In this document: in pieces, positions 20,912 to 47,324 of the stretch
How the letters are laid out: every line of letters begins with the position of its first letter
Numbering within the stretch: position 1 is the first letter of the stretch
Source of the DNA: Girardia tigrina
Lineage: Eukaryota
Length of the DNA: 64,000 bases
NCBI GenBank assembly: GCA_001938485.1
Contig: MQRK01244224.1
Coordinates: 21,310 to 85,309 of the forward strand
Direction: 5' to 3'
Made by a program: the position numbers and the translations under genes
The notes under the pieces: model-generated
Databases searched by the model: none
Told to the model about the DNA's origin: nothing
The model's input: only the letters and a program-made list of their open reading frames with translations

Positions 20912-21033
20912 TGTAGCACTAGAATAATTCAACCACGACACAACAGATATAAAATATATTAAAAAAACACGAGTTTCAATTTAACCCCACAAAATCAAGA
21001 ATATTAAAACAAAGTTTTAATCATCAATATACA
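20912..21033 (-). repeat. 3' LTR (122 bp)
   Basis: Direct repeat of 24410-24527 with TG..CA ends. Confidence 0.9.
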
Positions 21034-24000
21034 TCTCCCTAGATTCGGAAGAATCTAACTCATACAATGTGACATAATTACAGAATCTCCTTGGAGGTCA
21101 GCGCTCACGAACGATCGATTCCGTTTAATCTTGTTGTGAAGAATCGCTCAGATCCGAAACACTCAATTGAAATCGCGGTCTTAGATCTGCAATATGGCGC
21201 AACGAGTCAACATTCCTTATGGTTACTAAGAATTTGATTGGATTTATTATCACCTTGATAACTCCTTTACCAATTTTTTGTTGCATTGCTGGGCCTGATT
21301 TGGTTTCACCCATACTTTATCTCCCTCTTTGAACTTGGCTAAAAATTTATCTTCGCCAATATGATCTGTTGAGTTAACGACCAACTTCAACCGAGGTTTA
21401 TATCTGTAAAGAATTTCGGCTGCGGGCCTATCGCTTTTTCCTGGAGCATTATTCATCCAATACACAGTTTCTTGGATTCCATTCCCTGCTCTTGCGGCTA
21501 ACGCTTTGATGGTTCGATGACTCCTTTCGATTATTCCATTACCATTCGATCTACTTACAGCACGGCATATGACATTGATGCTCCACGCCTTCATCTCCGA
21601 TTTAAAGGCTTCAGGATGGAAAGACGAATAATTGTCCACCAACNACTCGTTAGGAGGTCCACGATCATAGAAAATATTTCTTAAGTTCTTAATGACTTCA
21701 GAAGCTCCCTCGTCCCTAATTTTTCTCCACATTGCAAACCTTGATGGTCAACAATAATAATCAATGATTGTAAGATATTTGGACTCTTCAAACTTCTACA
21801 CATCGATGGCAATTCTTCTTCAAATTTCATCGACTTCAAGATTCCTCTTTTCCATCAGACCGGTGCCGGATCAATGGATTGACAATGATTATACTGAAGG
21901 ATGTTTGCTGAATATCTTTTTCACTGACATTGATGTTGAACTCCTTCGCCTAATAAATCAATTGCTGTAGTTCCATATGCGTTCCGTCGTGAATTTCCTT
22001 AAATTTTTCGATGTCCGATTTTAGTAGAGCTGATACAACATTATCGATTTATCGGAAACCATTTTTGAGGAATTATCGTGAGAATATCTGCATTATTCAT
22101 CTCAGACCTGACGTAGACCACACAAAATTTTAAATTATATTCATTCACGAGATCTTTTAGCAGGTTAAATCTTCTACGGATTAATAACTCTGGATCAGCC
22201 TTAATCTTGTTTTTTTAAGTATTTTCAATTACATTCCATATCCAACCACATACTACTTGACTATCGAGTCTCAGCTCAATATCGGAAAAACCCCAAGCGA
22301 TTGCTAAATTTAACTCTTTTATGGCCGCTTCTAGCTCTACTAAATTAATATGCCTACAGTCATAAACTTTTCGGAGCCTTGAAACGTCCTTAATTCTTTA
22401 ACCATCAACATCTAAACGGACTCCTAGTGCCAATGAACTGGCATTACACCAGACGGTGGCTCTATTTTTATTCTTCACAGACCAAATTCCTTTCGCACAA
22501 TCATTTACCTTTATCCTTTCCACTATGTCCACGATCTCTTTCTTCAACTCGTCATGTATCTGACGGTCTCAGTTTCCGTTAGATTGCCGTTTAAGATACG
22601 AATTTGTAATTCTTAACCAACCACAGACGGGGTGGATACCAATGACTTGACCACAAAAGGAATACAGATCTCGTCTTGTTTTGACGTCTTCATGATTTAA
22701 ATTTAATCTATGTGCCTGCCTCCAATAAAACACACCGCGATCGTCTCCGTACACTTCTAGACCTAATACTCTGACTGATTTTTCTTGCTGAAATTTTTCA
22801 GGATCTTTCGAAACTAAGCCAAATTTCAGTAAATGCTCCCCATGCTCTCTACTGATACTTTACTTTCATCCACGAATATATCATCAATATAAACATCAGC
22901 GGCTTTATTAATATCAGGATCCATGGACAATACTTTCTCCACTATTTTCGTCAAAACCGTTGGTCCAACGTTTAAACCAAAATCCATTCTGTTGAACGCA
23001 TATCTCTTATGTTTATACAACACCGTTTGATACGGTAACATTTAGTCTTCTACGAACACTTGCATATATGCGTCCTTCAAATCCAACATTGGTCAATTGT
23101 CGGACTTTTTCTCCACTTTCGCAGCTTCTCATCATGGGCCGCACTATTTACACTATACACATCTACGTACTTATTGATATTTCTGAAATCGAAAACAGGT
23201 TGAACTTTATCTTTATTTGTTTGAACTTGGTCTGTATAAGAAAGTTTTATTGTTAATTTTTTAATTTTCGAAAATAAGAACTTCGTTTTCTTGGGAATAG
23301 TACACTTAGGGCGCCCAAATTTACATTTGTCATACGAAATTAAAAATCCCTTTCGATAAACTGTTTTATAACTTCTTCGAATTTGACCTTTGATGATGGA
23401 CTGACATTGTAGTAATCACAACGATAATCAAATTTGGGTTCTTCTATCGACCATTTCCATCTCAATATCCAACACTTGTCATATAACACCTCAAATTTCT
23501 TCTCTGTTATTTTCATACACTCGACTTGTTTTTCATCGACAACATCCGCTGCGGTTCAATTCACTTTCTCACAGCCGAAAACGGCCTCTTTATCAATTTT
23601 CACATCTCCAAACTTCTGAATCACATCTAGACGAATAAAAGCTTTATAACCCGACAACATTTTATTAACAATCAAACCTGTCGTAGAACATTTTTCATCA
23701 CCAATAATAACTTCCAAATCGGCTTCCAGAGTTCCAAATCTACTACCATCCATCATAGTTATCGTCCTATCAAATTTCGACGGCTTTCCGACGACAATAT
23801 TTCTGCATGCACCGGAATCGATTACAGCTTCAACTTTACGGCCATTAATGATAAGAGACCTAGTAATTAATTTTAATTCAGGAGTACATGCGGCTTCTAC
23901 TGCGAAGTACTCCCATCTTCGTTTTCCGAATGACAATTCTTAGCCGAATGACCATAACCCTTGCATGCTTTGCCTCTTAACCAGTTTCTACACTCGTTGA

Positions 24001-24409
24001 CAAAATGACCTTGCTGCAAACATCTAAAATACGTTACGTTAGACTTATGTGACGATCGTGGAGAATTTTTATGACGATTCTCTTCCACCGTTCTAAAATC
24101 ACCGTTGTTTGATTTAAAAGGGGTGACAATCAGATCGACGATAACGCCGAGCAAAAAGTTCTCAAAATTAACAGTGTTGAGTGGTTTGACGACCAGTTTA
24201 TTCGACAATGATAAACGTAAAATTTCAAATGTAATTCAAATAATATAATCAAATTGATAAAATTTCGTTTTGGGACGATCCTTACGCAATAATTGAGAAC
24301 CGGCTACAATCTCGAATTTTGTTTTCTATTCTTTGATCGAAAGCGACTTTCCGTCAAATTTTGGAATCACCACTAACAGCGTTTTAACGTACATTTAGTC
24401 CGGATAGCT

Positions 24410-32296: not shown

Positions 32297-32452
32297 CAAA
32301 TAAGTAAGATATGAAATCTTTGGGAGACATTGATTGACAACAAATTTGAAGGCCACTAAGGTTAAAACCAACGTAAACGTTAGTTGTAAACGATTTTGAG
32401 GAAGGCTTTTTTCAACTGCAAAGGTAACCAAAGATAGCGAACAAATTAAAAA
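32297..32452 (-). CDS. Pentameric ligand-gated ion channel exon (end of M1, M2, M2-M3 loop)
   Basis: Acceptor ttttttag and donor gtgagt; 156 nt, phase 0/0: FLICSLSLVTFAVEKSLPQNRLQLTFTLVLTLVAFKFVVNQCLPKISYLTYL. M2 has R0' and L9', followed by the LPKISY motif. Confidence 0.93.
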
Positions 32453-33199: not shown

Positions 33200-33550
33200 G
33201 ACGAGGTGCGTTCAAAAAGTACCTTATCAATGAAAACGAATTTTAAATTATAACACAAAACAACCATCCAGCTCCTTCAATTGTGGCCTCCAAAATGCTA
33301 GTTGTGCGCACTGGCGCATTGTTGGAGAGAAACCAAAGTCGCGTGTTGTTCTGCTTCATATTTTTTCTGGCGATTGCTACGATTTGGCTGTAATAGGCAG
33401 CGTTAATGTTGATGACTTTATCCGTGAAATCCACGAGAATAACATTTTTAAGATCTCAGAAAACGGAAAGAAACATTGCGCGCCTATTGCTTGTTTCTGT
33501 TTGCGTCTTTAAAGACGTCTTCTCTCCAGACAGTTTTTACTCTGCTGACT
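33200..33550 (-). mobile_element. Mariner 3' half (internally deleted), split from its 5' half
   Basis: TIR acgaggtgcgttcaaaaagt and DFTDKVININAAYY..NNAPVRT; nucleotide homology to about 46600-46855. Confidence 0.75.
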
Positions 33551-33670
33551 AATGCTTCAAACAAATAATGTTTCAAACAAATAAATATTGAATCGGATTT
33601 CATTCTGAAGTAGGGGAAAAATAAGCATTCGACATCAATCGATAATTGACCCCTCCTGGAGGTGTTACCC

Positions 33671-33989
33671 GTTTACATGGTAACGGTTACCATAGCAACG
33701 GCTCCGGTTACCTTTGCAACGGTTTCAGTTATCTTAGCAACGGTTCGGGTTCACTTGGCAAAGTACTTGGCAACGCTTTTGATTGGTTCCCGGCACCCTA
33801 GCAACGTTTCCGATTGCCATGGAAACGATTCTGATTGGTTCCTTAGCCTAGGCAACAATGGTTTCAGTTTCCTTAGCAACGGTAACTAAGGGACCGTTTT
33901 CATTAGCAACGAATACAGTAATTCAAGGCGGTTATAAACATGGTAACGGTAACCGTATCCATAGCAACCGTGACCTCTTTCTTAGCAAC
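33671..33989. repeat. Array of about 14 RFX X-box-like motifs with two inverted CCAAT boxes
   Basis: Examples: GTTACCATAGCAAC (33686), GTTACCTTTGCAAC (33707), GTTATCTTAGCAAC (33728), GTTTCCTTAGCAAC (33867), GTATCCATAGCAAC (33955); GATTGG at 33781 and 33833. Confidence 0.8.
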
Positions 33990-34466
33990 CGTAGAAGAAA
34001 GTGCTAATGGATCGCTGCACAGTGCCCAAATGTGCTAATCAATACTGCATATTTTTAATGTGTTAGCACAGTGCTTTTCAAGCTGCACATGTGCAAAAGT
34101 GCAAAAATCAATACATAAAAATTTTTAAAAGTGCTAGTGTCAAAAATCAATATCATGTGTTTGATGCACATTTTGATTCTTTATCTGAATTTGCAATTTG
34201 AATTCTCGTATATTGATAAACTTTTCCTATAATTAACAAGATGTGCAAAATTACACAAAAAACACATCGATTTAAGAGGTACAAGGAAGCAGAATATCAA
34301 AAAAGTGCTCATGCACTTGAATAGGAACCCATATATGTACCTTCAGATGCCATGTCAACATTTTCGAAAAAGTGCTGAAATATTGATTTATTCGAACATT
34401 TCTGAAATTCTCAAAANNNNNNNNNNNNNNNNNNNNNNNNNNNNNNNNNNNNNNNNNNNNNNNNNN

Positions 34467-34507
<41 letters not shown>

Positions 34508-34599
34508 TTTTATATGTTATATTTTATAAATGATATATAATAAAAGTTGTTGTGGACAAGGCTTTGAATAAAGATATAACAATATATTTGAAACACAAC

Positions 34600-34942
34600 T
34601 TACATAGTTGTAAACGAAATATAGTGAAAAACACGTGTAACAAAATCCTTATATTTTAAATCTCTCAAACCTGATTTGAAGTAGTCTTTTTCAAAGAATT
34701 GATATTAATAGGCTCACCATAATCACATGTCACTGTTATAGATTGTATAGTAACATTAGTGATATTGTAAGGTAAAGTGGATAGATAGGTTGTTTACATC
34801 ACATTATTTGACATTTTCCATTGCGGAAGAATATGATGGTGTACTCCGGAAAGTGTAACACATATTTACACGGTTTAGTACCAAAATGGAGATCTTTCAG
34901 ACAATCGCCAGTAAATCCTTTATAATTGATATTACGCAGCAT
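34600..34942 (-). pseudogene. Small intronless TBP-like (TATA-binding protein fold) gene, decayed
   Basis: MLRNINYKG...TIIFFRNGKCQIM*CKQP../..NITNVTIQSITVTCDYGEPINI../..GLRDLKYKDFVTRVFHYI mirrors TBP ALIFSSGKMVCTGAK...FKIQNMVGSCDVKFPIRL. One TGA falls at the conserved Gly; frameshifts and an apparent internal deletion. Confidence 0.65.
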
Positions 34943-35162
34943 TTTTTGTTAAAAATGAATATCAATGTATTCATTTCAATTCAAATTCCTGCCTTTTGAC
35001 TATTTATTAAAAGTGATTCATTAAAACAAATTAATAACAAGTGTTTGTCTCCCAAAGATTTCATATCTTACTTATTTGTTTTATTATATTTAAAGTAATA
35101 AGTAATATTAATATAATAGTGTGTTTTGTTTTAATGCATCAAATAAAATAAATACAATAAAC

Positions 35163-35909
35163 ATGATGAGATATCGTAACATCCAGACATTTTGTCATTA
35201 TTTGAAAATCCGTTTGACAAATCAAGTTGCTCCTGCTAAAATGAAGTGGAAGTTTAAAACCTTCAATGAACTTAACCAGGTAACTGAAGAAAAGAAGATT
35301 GATGATGAGACAGTTAATGGACCTAACCAATTAACTGAAGAGATAAATGCTGATCAACCTAAGCTAGTCGAACCAGCCAGGCCAGTAGGGTGGCCTAGAC
35401 TAATCAAACTGCCCAGGTTAGTTGGGCAATCAATAGTAGTCCAGGCTAGCCTAGGCACTCAGACAACCAAGGATATTCAGGCGCCAATTACTGAAGCCCA
35501 GGTTAGTCAGGCTAACCAAGCTAGTTATTTTCAACCAAAACAAAGAGATGCTCCACAAAAATCTTCATCACTTTGGGTTTCTACATCAACAACATATAGA
35601 GGTTATCAGATTAACTTGTTGAAATATCCAAAATCAATTAAATTGAGAGATCCGGTATATGTTAGAAAGACCAAATTTAGCTCTCATGTAGAAGACATTA
35701 GTTATCGCAATTATGATATTTTGAATGTAGCCCTACAAGAAGTAGGAACAAGACCAGATGAAAAGCTGAGTGAACACCGAGAACAATTTTTTCGATCAGA
35801 TGATGGATTAAAATTCAGAGATTTTATGGACCATGAAAAACAACAATGGACTTTTCTCATTATACTATGGCATTTATCAAAATATGCATGCAAGGTAGAA
35901 AAGAAATAG
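35163..35909 (+). CDS. Orphan intronless ORF (248 aa from first ATG), probable Polinton accessory gene
   Basis: Longest gap-free ORF in the window, with a low-complexity Q/P/A/E middle. Lies between the TBP-like gene and pPolB; no recognisable motif. Confidence 0.5.
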   Translation: MMRYRNIQTFCHYLKIRLTNQVAPAKMKWKFKTFNELNQVTEEKKIDDETVNGPNQLTEEINADQPKLVEPARPVGWPRLIKLPRLVGQSIVVQASLGTQTTKDIQAPITEAQVSQANQASYFQPKQRDAPQKSSSLWVSTSTTYRGYQINLLKYPKSIKLRDPVYVRKTKFSSHVEDISYRNYDILNVALQEVGTRPDEKLSEHREQFFRSDDGLKFRDFMDHEKQQWTFLIILWHLSKYACKVEKK

Positions 35910-36334
35910 ATGGCGATAATTATCCAATATGAAAATTGTCAGAAATTTGTTGTATTTAATTGTTGATGTAAGTTGTATTGATGTGTTAATAAATATTTTA
36001 ATAATTTAGTCTTGATTTCATAACAAAAATAGGTTAATACATTTGTTAATATGGATTTAGAAACATAAATGAATTATCTATTAGATACATCAAAGCTGAA
36101 TTTAGAAATGAATGGATAAATGTTATACTTATTAATATTATCATCAAGAGTTGTACGTTAATAAATGTTTTCCATGTTATTTTCTGTAATGATTATTTAA
36201 TTTACCTATAATTGAATTAAAACTTAACAAGTCTTAATTTATTTTTTTAATTTTAATTTATTTTTTTAATTTAATTTTTAACAACATACAACATTTATTT
36301 ATTTACATATGTACAATACATACAAGTGGATCAT

Positions 36335-36823
36335 TCACAAGAAATAATGTCCGTGAGGTAGTGTACTTATCCCATCTGTCAAAATATGTCGTTTATCGTC
36401 AAACCAGTCCAGGCTTTTCTTCCGCATCATTACTGTAGAGACTTGATATTCTCTTGATTGAATCCTTCGCATTTCAGAAATTATATTGATTTGTTTCCGT
36501 AGCACTCTCATATAATCATGGAATCCGATTTGGTTTGCTAACGTTACCCCTTGAACTCCCTTGGCCCTCTTTTTGATCTTACCATCCACATCAATGTCAT
36601 ACATCTCAGACCGTAGTGTTACGAATCTAAAGATGATTTGACCATTGACTTCATCCTTAAACTTTCCAAGGACCTTTTTATTTGATGTTGAATAATTTTG
36701 ATGGTCCTTTGGACAGTCTGAAGTATCCATATGTTGAGTCATTTGAAAAAACTCCGCAAACATATCTTCTGTATGAATCTGATAGACAAAGCTATCAGTA
36801 TCCATATACATTAGCTGTAAATC
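36335..36823 (-). mobile_element. Protein-primed family B DNA polymerase C-terminus (Polinton/adintovirus-like)
   Basis: LMYMDTDSF, NKKVLGKFKDE, LRSEMY, KRAKGV and DDKRHIL..STLPHGHY are typical Polinton pPolB motifs; the 5' part is missing. Confidence 0.9.
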
Positions 36824-36839
36824 CTACTACATTCCAAGT

Positions 36840-37275
36840 AGTTTCAATCATTTTACCGGCCAAAAAGTGGGGTACGAATCTGTAGCACAGTTTTCTGATA
36901 ACCGTTGATTTCAATTTGGTTTGGGCTGTACAAACACTGATGTTGACATTCATTGACCGTATTTTCATGGTAATACGCAGGTTATCTTCGACTATCTTCT
37001 CCAATTTTCCATCAACTGTATCAAAATTTCTTGTGCCCGACATAATTTTTCTTCATCAAAAACAGAGCTGCTACATCCTTATTTGTAAATATAATGCACC
37101 CTATCGCCCTCGAAAGAAAACGTGTAAACCTAGCATCCGTGCCGCAAACCATATGTTCATTTTAAAAGCTTATTCCTTAGGTTTTATATATTATTAATGT
37201 ATGAAATTGACTTATTGGTTAAATGTATTGATCATTAATTTCCGAACAATTTATTTGGGTAACCTGTAACCACTT
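36840..37275 (-). mobile_element. Mariner 5' half, partner of 33200-33550
   Basis: KLEKIVEDNLRITMK..NISV..RKLCYRFVPHFL; nucleotide homology to about 46975-47170. Confidence 0.75.
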
Positions 37276-38073
37276 AAAGCCAAAAACCGAGAACCAAGAA
37301 AGATAAAAAATTACATCAAAAATTAAAACTTTGATTTACAATTTACATGAGATACCCAAAACTCAACAATAAAAAAAGAGAAAAAAATATAATTAATTTT
37401 GAAATAAAAGAAGATTGTTATGAAAATATTGAGACATGAAATTTAAATTTCTATGAAAAACCTTTTTTTTTAAATTTATATGAGAAAAACATTTTCTCTT
37501 TTTTCATAAATTATATATTATTAATACGAAGTCATTAAAAATGCAAATTAAATTCAAAGCAAAAAAATAATAGATTTATTCTATAAGAAACATACTCCAA
37601 ATTCTTCCCATAAATTTTCTCTAAAGAAGCAAAACATCATTCCCAATTGAGACATATTTTAAGTAAATATCCCCTCAAAGAGAACAAATTTTCAATGAAG
37701 TACATCTCTAAGCTTATGGAATATATTAATTTAATATTTTCTTAAAATTATTGAAATTTATTTTACAAAATAAATAATCATTTTATCATAAGTCCGCAAA
37801 ACACAATGTTTGGTGCAACATCAAATTTAACTTAGAGACTGAACGGAGGTAGCAGAGTCATGATTTGGCTGTGGATCGTATTAGACCCATTTTTTGTTTT
37901 TCAGGTTAGAAATATTTTGACTCATCATTATTGTTTTTGACACTAAATCAATTTTGTGGTTTTCGAGAAAAATAAACGGACCAAAAAATATATATTTTAA
38001 ACAAAAATCAATAATAATATGTTCGAAATAATTCAAAATCAAATAAATATTGTTTCGTTATTAATTTCGTTTC

Positions 38074-44698: not shown

Positions 44699-45870
44699 TT
44701 GGGTTGGCCAAAAAAGTCATTGCGTTTTTTACTAAAATATTTATTATCAAAAATGATATGGATGCACAAATATTTTTACACGATATACTGTCCATTATTT
44801 TCAATCACTTTTTCCCACCTTTCCGGTATCTTTATTATTCCTGATTCATAAAAGCCTTTGCCTTTGTCAGCAAAAAAACCGTCTACGAACGATTTGATGT
44901 CATCATCACTGGCGAATGTTTTTTCTGTTTAAGGAATTCTGCAGTGATCTAAATAAGTGAAAATTCGATGGGGCCAAGTCTGGAGAATACGGTGGATGCG
45001 CAAAACCTCCCAACCCAGTGATAAGAGTTTCTGGCGAGTGGTCAAACTTGTATGCGGTCTTGCGTTATCATGCTGAATTACAACTCCTTTTCGATTTGCA
45101 AATTCTGGACGTTCCTGTTGAATTGAATGAGCCAATTTTTCCAGCTGACCACAATATTTGTCTGAATTGAAGGTTTCATTCCTCGGAAGGAGTTCAAAAA
45201 ACACAATTCCTTTAAAATCTCACCAGACGGAAAGCATAACCTTCTTTTGGTGAATTTCTGCTTTTGTGATTGTTTTGGCAGGCTCACCACGTTTTGTCCA
45301 TGATCTTCGGCGTTCCACATTGTTGTAAACAATCCATTTTTCGTCACCAGTAATCAAGCGCTTCAAAAATGGATCAATTTGTTCTCGCTTCAAAAGGGAA
45401 TTGTAAATATCTATACGTTTCACCAAATGAATTTCTTTCAGTTCATGTGGTAACCACATATCAATTTTACTGACGAATCCAAGTTTCTTTAAATGACTTC
45501 CAACACTTGATTCTGATATTTCCAGAGTCTCTGCAACTTCTCTTGTCGTCATATGTGGATTAGATTTGATCAGTGCTGTTATTTNNNNNNNNNNNNNNNN
45601 NNNNNNNNNNNNNNNNNNNNNNNNNNNNNNNNNNAAGAGTAGCTTCTGCCATGTCTACCAGCAAAAATAAAATTATGTAATTATAACACACAAAAAGATA
45701 TGGTGTCTATATTACGTGTTCTCAAATAGCTGCCGCACCCTGTATATATTAAAAAAATTAAATTAGTTTAAAAATATATAATTGAATTTAAATTTTATCA
45801 CATCGTTTTACATTTTCAAGCTTTTTATTAGGACGTACTCAAAAACGCAATGACGTTTTGGCCAACCCAA
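44699..45870 (-). mobile_element. Mariner (DD34D, cecropia-like) with both TIRs, frameshifted
   Basis: TIRs TTGGGTTGGCCAAAA..GTCATTGCGTTTTT with TA on both sides; WLPHEL, ITGDEKW, HDNARPH and HPPYSPDLAPS motifs. Confidence 0.93.
45635..45744. mobile_element. End of a Tc1-like element nested in the mariner
   Basis: tgccgcaccctgta is the reverse complement of TA-CAGGGTGCGGCA, a Tc1-type terminus. The sequence is unrelated to mariner coding; the remainder is in the N gap. Confidence 0.45.
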
Positions 45871-46309: not shown

Positions 46310-47324
46310 ATAGGGCCATTTTTATAATACAATAAGCTTAACGTATGTCGGCATTATTTTTTTAACATAATTTCCATTTCGCTTTACACACTTCTGCTAA
46401 CAAATAATCAACTTAGAAACGTCTTTTTAAAAAATTCTTTGGGGCATGCGGTGAAAAAATCCTCTACAGCAACCTACAAATCGTCATTGGATCAAAATTG
46501 TATGCCTATAAAACATTTTTTAGGAGTCTGAAGAGGTAAAAATCGTTCGGGACCAAATCTGAGCTGTACAGCAAAGGATTCACAAGCACTAATGCAGCAC
46601 ATTCAATTGTGGCCCGAGAAATGCCCACCGTGTGCACTGGCGCATAGTTGTTCTTCTGTTTCTATCTCTTCTTTTTAAGGTTGCCACGAGTTGTTTGTAA
46701 TAGGCAGCGTTGATAGTGAAGGCTTTATCAGCAAAATCCATGAGAATAAAATGTTTTCTATCACAGAAAAAGGAAAGCATCATCGCTCATCGATAACTTG
46801 TCCCCATTTGCATCTTCAAAATTGATTCTCCCAAGACAGTTTCCACTCTACTGACTCAAACTTTGTTTTCGTTAAATACATATTGAGTGGAATTTCATCT
46901 TCCGTTATTAAATTACAAGAAAGTTTTACCATGCTTGTCCCTCTGGTTCAATTTGTTTTGACTGCGACTCCGGAGCACTTTTTTCTGACACCCATGGATT
47001 TCAGTTTGGTGTACGCTGTACCAGCCCTGATGTTGAGCTTTATTGACAGCATTTTGATGGTAATTTGATGCTCTACTCGGACTGTCTTCTCCAATTTTTA
47101 ATCAAATATGTCAAAAAGGTTTTGTAGCTGACCTGATTTTTCTTGATCAAAAACAGAGGTGCGACCACCTTTAGCCTCTCATACCCAATATTTAATAGTT
47201 GTCAGAAATGGGAAGTTTTATAGGTAAGTTGATGGCAAACGATCTTAGATTTCAATCCATGTCTTCTTCTGCAACACAAAGACTTTACCTTAGGTCGGGT
47301 TACCTATTGAACGCACCACATGTA
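46310..47324 (-). mobile_element. Decayed mariner (same family as the split element at 33.2/37 kb)
   Basis: DFADKAFTINAAYY, YSSDLVPNDFYLFR and CVKRNGNYV; TIR-like tacatgtggtgcgttcaatag at the right end. Confidence 0.8.

Follow-up and report, generated by a model that had tools for sequence, protein, structure and literature searches.

Polintons are described as single molecules. Together with the Alpha-class adintoviruses, Polintons/Mavericks are characterised by a protein-primed B-family DNA polymerase (pPolB) of the PF03175 type with an endonuclease VII domain, by AGT...ACT ends, long terminal inverted repeats (TIRs) and a 6-bp target site duplication (TSD) (PMC8097293; PMC8502044), and eight core genes have been named for vertebrate elements (PMC8097293). 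Within the portion of PMC8502044 considered, the only mention of a TATA-binding protein (TBP) is in the non-animal section, in the legend to a figure that deals with MELD viruses, and the term 'TBP' was not found in one of its supplements. Segmentation combined with a Polinton-derived pPolB and with similar TIRs between the segments has been reported for the bidnaviruses and the Drosophila Vesanto virus; these are parvovirus-like ssDNA viruses, and an integrase or a double-jelly-roll module is not described in the sections considered (PMC8502044; PMC8363768).

The TBP mimic of beta- and gammaherpesviruses (KSHV ORF24) represents a viral TBP fold that occurs without a viral RNA polymerase and with a variant TATA box in front of late genes; this large protein acts in a complex with several other viral proteins, and binding of TFIIB cannot be reconciled with its model (PMC12529657). 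The TBP-like proteins of the Nucleocytoviricota possess the TBP saddle and the conserved phenylalanines, their N-lobe regulator surface is not conserved (PMC7221094; BFVD), their TFIIB-contact sites have diverged and they are often accompanied by an own TFIIB (PMC7221094).

The locus analysed here lies in a 64,000-nucleotide stretch of a Girardia tigrina contig (the window). Its element family shares the polymerase type, the ends, the long TIRs and the 6-bp TSD with the Polintons, but the gene set sits on two separately integrated elements, termed class R and class S. Furthermore, a 145-aa TBP (mini-TBP) and a predicted T7 gp2.5-type ssDNA-binding protein (SSB) fall outside the eight named vertebrate core genes if these are compared by name, the identity of pz, pw and pm being left aside (PMC8097293). 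Unlike the segments of the bidnaviruses and the Vesanto virus, the two pieces are found integrated, with a 6-bp TSD, and together hold the Polinton gene set (PMC8502044; PMC8363768). No animal-Polinton TBP, Polinton SSB or bipartite Polinton was found in the literature covered, which excludes Repbase and most subscription papers, and term searches in PMC11161782 and 10.64898/2026.10.13.758929 found none either.

The window locus and class R

In itself the window locus is only a dead copy, because its TBP gene is broken and its right end is deleted. With moderate confidence we interpret it as a copy, truncated on the right, of a TIR-bounded Polinton element of 8.2 kb (class R), which likely serves as replication segment in a bipartite Polinton with class S as the other segment, bearing the same TIRs and the ATPase, integrase, protease and probable capsid genes. 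As the initial annotation had proposed, an array of X-box-like sites, a TBP-like gene, a 248-aa ORF and pPolB belong together; they form one repeat family, for which the genome yielded thousands of search candidates, the best 40-150 being scored per search. In 12 of 20 other copies the array lies beside the block of TBP, ORF and pPolB, oriented as in the window. The 50-N gap (34417..34466) and the (TA)n tract, which together occupy 34417..34500 at the inner TIR border, do separate the array from the genes in the window; the two sides nevertheless belong together, and other copies contain ~190-360 bp at the position of the gap.

Whole copies of class R are ~8.2 kb long, have AGTAG ends and are flanked by target duplications of 6 bp; their coding content is restricted to pPolB, the 145-aa TBP and the predicted SSB. 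The TSD is perfect in L113, L117, L118 and L198, in each of which both ends were recovered, and matches in 5/6 bases in L200; L117 and L118 are pPolB-poor, internally deleted derivatives that retain ends and TSD. The features expected of intact copies were found only in part: TIRs, the 6-bp TSD, an open TBP frame and the array in the same orientation were present, but markers of ATPase, integrase, capsid and protease were detected in none of the 11 both-ended or near-whole R copies. Since the rve integrase, ATPase, protease and capsids are not encoded on the pPolB element but on class S, class R is not filed as an autonomous Polinton. Copies with pPolB beside a TIR, considered as a possible TBP-less class, mostly turned out to be a second isomer of class R. 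Contigs of four runs, whose RNA nature is only guessed, cover the R stretch and are uninformative on expression either way.

Terminal inverted repeats

The TIR of the window copy (33609..34466, plus strand) starts with AGTAGGGGAAAA, a terminus that is the same in other copies, and its inner end lies inside the N gap. In whole copies the TIR is ~1.07 kb long; its ends read AGTAGG, and (AGT)2 is not exact. The outer part contains an array of X-box-like (RFX-type) sites (33671..33990) with a modal spacing of 21 bp, in which the CCAAT/Y-box-like motif GATTGG occurs twice (33781 and 33833), while the inner part (34000..34416) is rich in GTGC/GCAC (15 occurrences vs 3.2 expected). The array exceeds chance: 16 RGYAAC-type half-sites were counted in 33650-34000 compared to a shuffle mean of 1.2 (maximum 5 in 500), and seven sites lie within two mismatches of a 14-bp X-box consensus pattern, where 0.02 are expected. 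Near-full X-boxes average 3.7 per terminus (107 termini).

The array had been regarded as the gene-linked enhancer of one module. Instead, it is part of the TIR at both ends of class R and of its complementary class. The proposed recruitment of RFX is also less unusual than suggested, since RFX is already known to bind the AAV terminal repeat (ITR D sequence) (PMC5760533). Both systems possess X-box-like sites within a viral terminal repeat, but the R/S termini carry a phased array with CCAAT-like sites instead of the single site of AAV (PMC5760533), and RFX binding is predicted here from the motifs. RFX domains are encoded by the host (six matches above the cut-off).

Genes of class R

The C-terminal 162 codons of pPolB (36335..36825, minus strand) are open in the window and contain the motifs YMDTDS and KRAKG, the remainder of the element being deleted from 36826. 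This C-terminus is 84-90% identical to sister copies, in which PF03175 scored above its cut-off and the endonuclease VII domain is present.

The mini-TBP gene (~34597..34942, minus strand) encodes 145 aa in open copies and is a pseudogene in the window, where the frame shifts near 34788 and stops prematurely near 34800 and where ~85-90 bp near 34675 are lost. Taken alone, with stops read as X, none of the three window frames matched any Pfam family or a TBP in the PDB, and the identification therefore rests on open sister copies, of which 5/5 passed the PF00352 cut-off. Together with the fold model, this bears out the suggestion of a Polinton-type element with its own TBP-fold protein. The AF2 model (pLDDT 90) presents a two-repeat saddle of eight long strands without both N-lobe helices and reaches TM scores of 0.69-0.79 to solved TBPs. 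The residues E94, E96, F98 and F114 are invariant (15/15), and the YEPE stirrup is retained. Compared with matches from BFVD, the fold is nearer to cellular TBPs than to the TBP-like proteins of the Nucleocytoviricota, from which it also differs in the absence of both N-lobe helices and in the conserved E-x-E motif (15/15), which comprises both TFIIB-contact glutamates (PMC7221094). Unlike KSHV ORF24, the mini-TBP is only 145 aa long, keeps these glutamates and has its candidate target box on the other segment (PMC12529657); a viral TFIIB-like protein or other viral partner was not detected. Based on these residues the mini-TBP is predicted to bind a TATA-type box and TFIIB. A search of IMG/VR for relatives retrieved five loci, all of which were rejected as large-virus TBPs with 28-34% identity.

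The 248-aa ORF at 35163..35909 (plus strand), previously described as an orphan, is predicted to encode a T7 gp2.5-type SSB consisting of a low-complexity N-terminus and a T7 gp2.5/Enc34-type OB fold. In the fold comparison a model of the protein from a sister lineage, which is tied to the window ORF at E 3.9e-13, obtained Z scores of 9.0, 8.8 and 8.3 to DUF2815, the Enc34 SSB and T7 gp2.5 (rmsd ~3, 108-111 aligned residues), the next unrelated row following at Z 5.3, and its capping helix matches that of gp2.5. The window ORF is frameshifted near 35838, leaving the last ~23 residues out of frame. Its leader and start (35125..35211, plus strand) are duplicated before pPolB in the other isomer. 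As the ORF presumably encodes an SSB, the cassette combines replication and TBP functions and is not the pure transcription module that had been envisaged; it would also provide Polinton-type elements with a missing accessory for strand-displacement replication.

The complementary class S and the monopartite relative

Class S is present in high copy number and encodes neither pPolB nor TBP. Taken together, R and S comprise pPolB, an rve integrase, an A32-like ATPase, an adenain-like protease and probable capsids. On the right side of S, a TIR follows the last gene at 28 of 30 loci and pPolB at none (0/30); conversely, virion genes were found on the 5' side of pPolB at 0/30 loci, and TBP or SSB upstream of the S-type ATPase at 0/35 loci (29 distinct copies). 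Complementary segments with shared termini, as expected of a multipartite virus, are thus found in R and S, a split into two elements that was missed when the locus was viewed as one module. Among eight S copies tried, one internally deleted copy has both termini and a TSD matching in 5/6 bases, and the other seven are without an intact second terminus. The double-jelly-roll major capsid protein of class S is a tentative assignment: PF21738 gave a weak match (E 0.039) on the homologue L227 and none on S copies, and the S candidate, which matches a PF21738-positive capsid in BLASTP (E 4e-4), sits between a pX-like gene and the protease, a position that fits.

In a tree of 53 TIRs (51 different), two starred clades each contain both classes (5 R and 14 S; 22 R and 12 S) with similar end branches, and the class label is slightly clustered (14 changes vs 18 when shuffled; 18/500), most inner branches being unsupported. 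Class M was not part of this tree, from which TIR matches shorter than 380 bp or with N were omitted; in a separate comparison its TIRs fell within the R/S pool.

Class M is a monopartite relative from the same genome, ~70-84% identical, in which TBP, SSB and ATPase occur together at 7 of 8 loci and the last virion-side gene is followed by pPolB at 9 of 30 loci. With TIRs that group among those of R and S, class M could act as a helper. TBP-less full Polintons, retrieved by PF04665, were rejected as a partner on account of their different TIRs, a pPolB of only 28% identity and the lack of TBP in 20 regions.

Selection and the TATAAAC box

In both classes, variants present in more than one copy bear the mark of purifying selection, which speaks only indirectly for segments that are packaged and needed together, as class M could be the helper. 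The ratio of nonsynonymous to synonymous changes in shared vs singleton variants was 0.52 vs 3.86 in R TBP, 0.32 vs 4.83 and 0.29 vs 3.53 in R pPolB, 1.5 vs 3.96 (p 0.016) in R SSB, 0.57 vs 3.86 in S ATPase and 0.12 vs 3.55 in S protease; the contrast was not significant for the S capsid (p 0.61) and an S DEDD-like gene (p 0.18). Matches with <84% or >99.5% identity, with <60% coverage or >98.5% alike were dropped, and the S integrase is represented by five copies.

The heptamer TATAAAC, which differs from an ordinary TATA box by a single base, is located 15-70 nt before all nine S gene starts (140/163 copy-starts) but before none of the three R genes (0/124 copy-starts); these counts use approximate positions for the two pPolB starts and include copies that are not independent of one another. 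Monopartite relatives that possess a TBP have the box in the corresponding place before their genes. The box is over-represented in two TBP-less Polintons as well (8 and 9 vs 1.3-1.7), with only 1 of 28 boxes in that position before genes. The targets of the mini-TBP therefore likely lie on another molecule, class S.

A possible bipartite cycle and its alternatives

From these features we infer a cycle in which host factors, probably RFX and perhaps NF-Y, would occupy the phased TIR boxes, so that both ends are opened and early expression begins. The pPolB and SSB of class R would copy both segments from their common AGTAG ends by protein-primed strand displacement, and the mini-TBP, bound to TATAAAC, would recruit host TFIIB and Pol II via its retained YEPE stirrup and thereby switch on the late genes of S in trans. 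Class S would in turn supply the integrase, which generates the 6-bp TSD, and particles for both segments. Because its N-lobe helices are missing, the mini-TBP would presumably escape the host regulators of TBP. We tentatively interpret the pair, with slightly less than even confidence, as an integrating dsDNA Polinton virus gone bipartite, whose mutually dependent segments exist in thousands of copies: a replication segment with a stripped-down, TFIIB-recruiting TBP that evades host regulators, and a virion/integration segment with a private TATAAAC late promoter, both started by a common RFX/NF-Y-type terminal array.

Alternatively, R and S may be independent semi-autonomous deletion derivatives (satellites) of full-length M, each moved by M in trans without ever requiring the other. 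Class M carries all genes on one element and has its TIR pool in common with R and S; moreover, R isomer B and S look like reciprocal deletions of the M gene order, and the pPolB-poor derivatives L117 and L118 likewise keep ends and TSD. However, pure passengers would not be expected to show the purifying selection seen after the split in the ATPase and protease of S and in the TBP and pPolB of R, and R and S are far commoner than M among the ATPase and TBP matches. The M copies have also diverged less from one another (TBP dS 0.09 vs 0.22 among R copies, with an R-M dS of 0.78; 6 R and 7 M copies picked for open frames, which biases dN/dS downwards), which makes M appear younger than the expansion of R and S. 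We regard this origin as unlikely, though as a serious competitor.

The cis-acting role of TBP and RFX array as a transcription module for the adjoining ORF and pPolB, as put forward in the initial annotation, would agree with the position of the array next to the TBP/SSB pair in both R isomers, with the host RFX domains and with the AAV precedent (PMC5760533). It seems improbable given that all termini of R, S and M carry the array, which is thus not particular to this pair, that the R genes are devoid of TATAAAC, that the ORF is a predicted SSB and that the 21-bp phasing suits origin or initiator sites equally with an enhancer. Very improbable, in our view, is an effect of fragmented assembly or sampling, which would have collapsed existing full-length elements of this lineage: even though the assembly comprises 255,254 contigs with many N stretches and only best matches were scored, R is found on single contigs, bounded by a TIR on each side and by a TSD, the junctions are constant across copies, with the TIR after the last S gene in 28/30 loci and mixed junctions in 0/30 on either side, and the same searches did recover the mixed junctions of M.

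If the bipartite interpretation holds, the two selected halves of this Polinton and their full-length relative would document, in thousands of datable copies, how one genome piece became two in nature, and the mini-TBP with its matching box on the other segment would make a self-encoded late switch directly and cheaply testable.

Insertion site and host sequences in the window

The window copy was inserted into an older mariner-like transposase repeat on the minus strand, the left and right parts of which lie at 33330..33608 and 36826..37080, ~60 bp having been lost together with the right end of the element. The repeat runs over the whole insertion, and 15 of 24 copies are uninterrupted; a sister copy at 46649-47171 gave a Transposase_1 match below the cut-off (E 3.5e-4). 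A TSD is absent since the right end is deleted. The motif CCTACT at 36823-36828 was rejected as a right terminus, as other copies continue into pPolB and the sequence from 36826 onward is host repeat.

Furthermore, a 33-bp insertion between TBP gene and SSB gene (35046..35078, plus strand) is unique to the window copy (0/30 other copies) and represents an inverted copy of the stretch 32297-32329 left of the gap. This source belongs to a host exon outside the element (32297..32415, minus strand, donor GTGAG) of a Cys-loop ligand-gated channel-like gene, which matches Neur_chan_memb below the cut-off (E 4.9e-4).

The element in the window

The locus proved to be real and to hold more than the transcription module first proposed. 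All features named in the initial annotation (array of X-box-like sites, GTGC-rich zone, TBP-like gene, ORF and pPolB tail) were recovered in the window. They form a copy of an element termed class R, with a sharp left boundary at 33609 and an end at 36825, where other copies continue into pPolB. The array comprises 16 half-sites versus 1.2 expected, and seven near-full boxes versus 0.02 expected under what we take to be the X-box consensus. The reading frame of the pPolB C-terminus is open. The TBP-like gene is disrupted in this copy and its frames by themselves matched neither Pfam nor the TBPs in the PDB; its proposed identity is borne out by five of five open sister copies, which pass the PF00352 cut-off.

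A first look at the AT-rich assembly (1.43 Gb, 255,254 contigs) gave 7374 candidates for the array, 1239 for the TBP block, 1866 for the ORF block and 3659 for the pPolB tail, which are not copy numbers. The co-occurrence of array and gene block suggested initially also holds elsewhere: in 12 of 20 copies the two adjoin with the same orientation. Array, TBP, ORF and pPolB are one element and no chance cluster, and we regard the identity of this unit as Polinton-type as close to certain.

In 15 of 24 uninterrupted copies the mariner-like repeat flanking the insertion is contiguous across it save for 37-63 bp. Furthermore, window positions 35046-35078 are a 33-bp exact inverted copy of 32297-32329, the end of a host exon 2.7 kb away, and none of 30 other copies of the element carries such an insertion. 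Since the repeat continues across the insertion and the exon piece is unique to this copy, the two sides of the 50-N gap (34417-34466) belong together, as the initial annotation had required. The exon piece has the appearance of an insertion templated during double-strand-break repair. The exon itself (32297-32415, minus strand) is the single one detected of a Cys-loop ligand-gated channel-like gene. No second exon was found among the 53 minus-strand ORFs scanned, and the element probably sits within an intron of this gene.

A 3.6-kb contig (G000:C73456:268-3631; L034, L124) is practically identical to window 34467-37830, stops at the (TA)n tract and represents either an allele or an assembly duplicate. 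The window also contains a decayed reverse-transcriptase element (21000-24300, minus strand; RVT_1, RVT_3 and DUF7047 matches) and two further mariner-like transposase relics (44932-45219 and 46649-47171, minus strand).

Structure and genes of class R

Whole class R copies measure ~8.2 kb with TIRs of ~1.07 kb, the outer part of which is the array. They encode pPolB (PF03175 plus endonuclease VII), the ORF and a mini-TBP. The TIRs and the 6-bp duplications of the target site (TSDs) anticipated for intact copies were found (TCAGTC in L113, ATAGAG in L117, CTTAGC in L118, ATAATA in L198; five of six bases agreeing in L200). The anticipated capsid and integrase genes were not: among 11 both-ended or near-whole copies, none matched a virion or integrase marker. 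Class R thus resembles Polintons in termini, TSD and pPolB (PMC8097293, PMC8502044) but differs in missing integrase and capsids, and therefore is not an autonomous Polinton.

Two isomers occur, which differ by an inversion of pPolB relative to the SSB/TBP pair: pPolB converges on the ORF in the window copy and L113 and lies behind it in L200 and L205. One isomer carries a second copy of the ~105-bp SSB leader ahead of pPolB, with a splice-donor-like GTGAGT word after it. TIR bases ~15-60 vary strongly among L117, L118, L198 and L200 and are alike at both ends of each copy, as expected from panhandle replication.

The 248-aa ORF (35163-35909) is predicted to encode a protein that binds single-stranded DNA (SSB). 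Its C-terminal domain, modelled on a sister-lineage protein (pLDDT 86) linked to the window ORF at E 3.9e-13, matched the folds of DUF2815 (Z 9.0), Enc34 SSB (8.8), T7 gp2.5 (8.3) and ASFV CP312R (7.3; next row 5.3). ORF homologues adjoin TBP in six of 33 loci (L208-L240). On the metagenome contig L228 two tandem SSB-like paralogues (1479-1835, 2282-2644) precede the mini-TBP.

That the element encodes its own TBP-fold protein, as initially proposed, is also supported by the predicted model of the 145-aa mini-TBP (pLDDT 90), which aligns with solved TBPs at TM 0.69-0.79 and is devoid of both N-lobe helices. Fifteen of 15 homologues share residues E94, E96, F98 and F114, and F39 is nearly invariant; based on alignments and presumed yeast numbering we take the glutamates to be the TFIIB contacts and the phenylalanines to be the intercalating ones. 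At the positions of yeast N159, V161 and L205, again in presumed numbering, the mini-TBP has S, T and N. In TBP, two glutamates contact TFIIB, both of them diverged in large-virus TBPs, and the N-lobe is the binding side for regulators such as Mot1 (PMC7221094). Given the retained glutamates, the lost helices and the three replacements, the mini-TBP may still bind host TFIIB, avoid host regulators and prefer an altered box. Net dN/dS between the R and M lineages is 0.20 (mini-TBP, open copies only).

Broad in extent, the family has 16 near homologues and, at E values of up to 1e-30, 50 clusters. Eight metagenome contigs (L215, L216, L221, L226, L227, L230, L232, L234) carry a mini-TBP homologue among Polinton genes on one molecule. 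The divergent L230 and L232 also possess a KilA-N/DUF3627 gene, and L230 a PLA2-like gene.

Classes S and M

A sister TBP (71-73% identical) adjoins the ORF, an ATPase and the same TIR. Searching the genome with this ATPase yielded two groups, class M (93-100%) and class S (75-83%). Class M is monopartite, since an SSB lies upstream of its ATPase (seven of eight loci) and pPolB follows its DEDD-like last gene (nine of 30 loci). In the M pPolB (L408, L399) the N-terminus is enlarged and shows long poly-Q tracts as well as repeated units that contain Cys/His; these are absent or shorter in class R.

Neither TBP nor SSB was detected upstream of the class S ATPase in 35 loci (29 distinct copies). 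The last S gene is followed by a TIR in 28 of 30 loci and by pPolB in none of 30; virion genes on the 5' side of pPolB were likewise found in 0 of 30 loci. In L330 (~9.5 kb) the order is TIR, acidic ORF, small ORF, ATPase, ORF, integrase, penton-like, pX-like, probable major capsid, protease, DEDD-like, TIR. ATPase and integrase exceed Pfam cut-offs, the protease label rests on a PF00770 homologue, the major capsid call is weak, and the penton, pX and DEDD labels are presumptive, from motif and position. Both termini were recovered in one S copy (TSD 5/6) and were sought in seven further copies without being obtained.

Set apart from these classes is a TBP-less Polinton of ~16 kb on G000:C234723, which seems to be whole. 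Its TIRs measure 190 bp and have AGTAGT ends (L174:3215-3405 and L175:9290-9480), and it encodes PLA2-like domains, a protein resembling adenovirus pX and a pPolB frame of 1504 aa.

Relationship between classes R and S

One S interior has the word TATAAAC ten times on its sense strand versus 1.2 expected; each of four R interiors has it a single time. It lies 15-70 nt ahead of all nine genes of class S, at 140 of 163 copy-starts, and at this distance before none of 124 R copy-starts. A long ORF follows 11 of 23 boxes in TBP-bearing relatives and only one of 28 in two TBP-less Polintons, although TATAAAC is frequent there as well. As class S has boxes and no TBP, and class R a TBP and no such boxes, the R mini-TBP would presumably activate class S genes in trans via TATAAAC.

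Nonsynonymous/synonymous ratios were compared between variants shared among copies and singletons. They amounted to 0.52 versus 3.86 in R TBP (p 1e-8), 0.32 versus 4.83 and 0.29 versus 3.53 in R pPolB, 1.5 versus 3.96 in R SSB (p 0.016), 0.57 versus 3.86 in S ATPase and 0.12 versus 3.55 in S protease; the S capsid and DEDD-like genes gave no significant difference. Since shared variants are richer in synonymous changes, both classes retained working genes while amplifying as separate molecules. A tree of 53 TIRs contains two starred clades that each include both R and S and whose end branches are similar; the labels are slightly clustered (14 changes versus 18). Class M TIRs fall in the same pool, and R and S might instead be two satellites of the monopartite class M, a reading we consider less likely. 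We lean modestly towards a bipartite R/S pair with a trans-acting TBP.

Segmentation combined with pPolB likens the proposed R/S pair to bidnaviruses and Vesanto virus (PMC8502044, PMC8363768), and the presumed pairing of mini-TBP and TATAAAC resembles the herpesvirus TBP with its variant late box (PMC12529657). Our literature searches found no description of a bipartite Polinton or of a TBP in animal Polintons; the text available from PMC8502044 names TBP in a single figure legend, which concerns MELD viruses, and that of a preprint on Maverick expansion in planarians is without the R/S anatomy.

The TIR array

Across 107 termini, which may include a few false ends, half-sites averaged 9.9 and near-full boxes 3.7 per terminus; GATTGG is present in 55 of the termini and the commonest site spacing is 21 bp. 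RFX domains are encoded by the host, and by analogy with the AAV terminal repeat, which is bound by RFX1/3 (PMC5760533), use of RFX by the array is plausible. The array may act equally well at a replication origin or in transcription.
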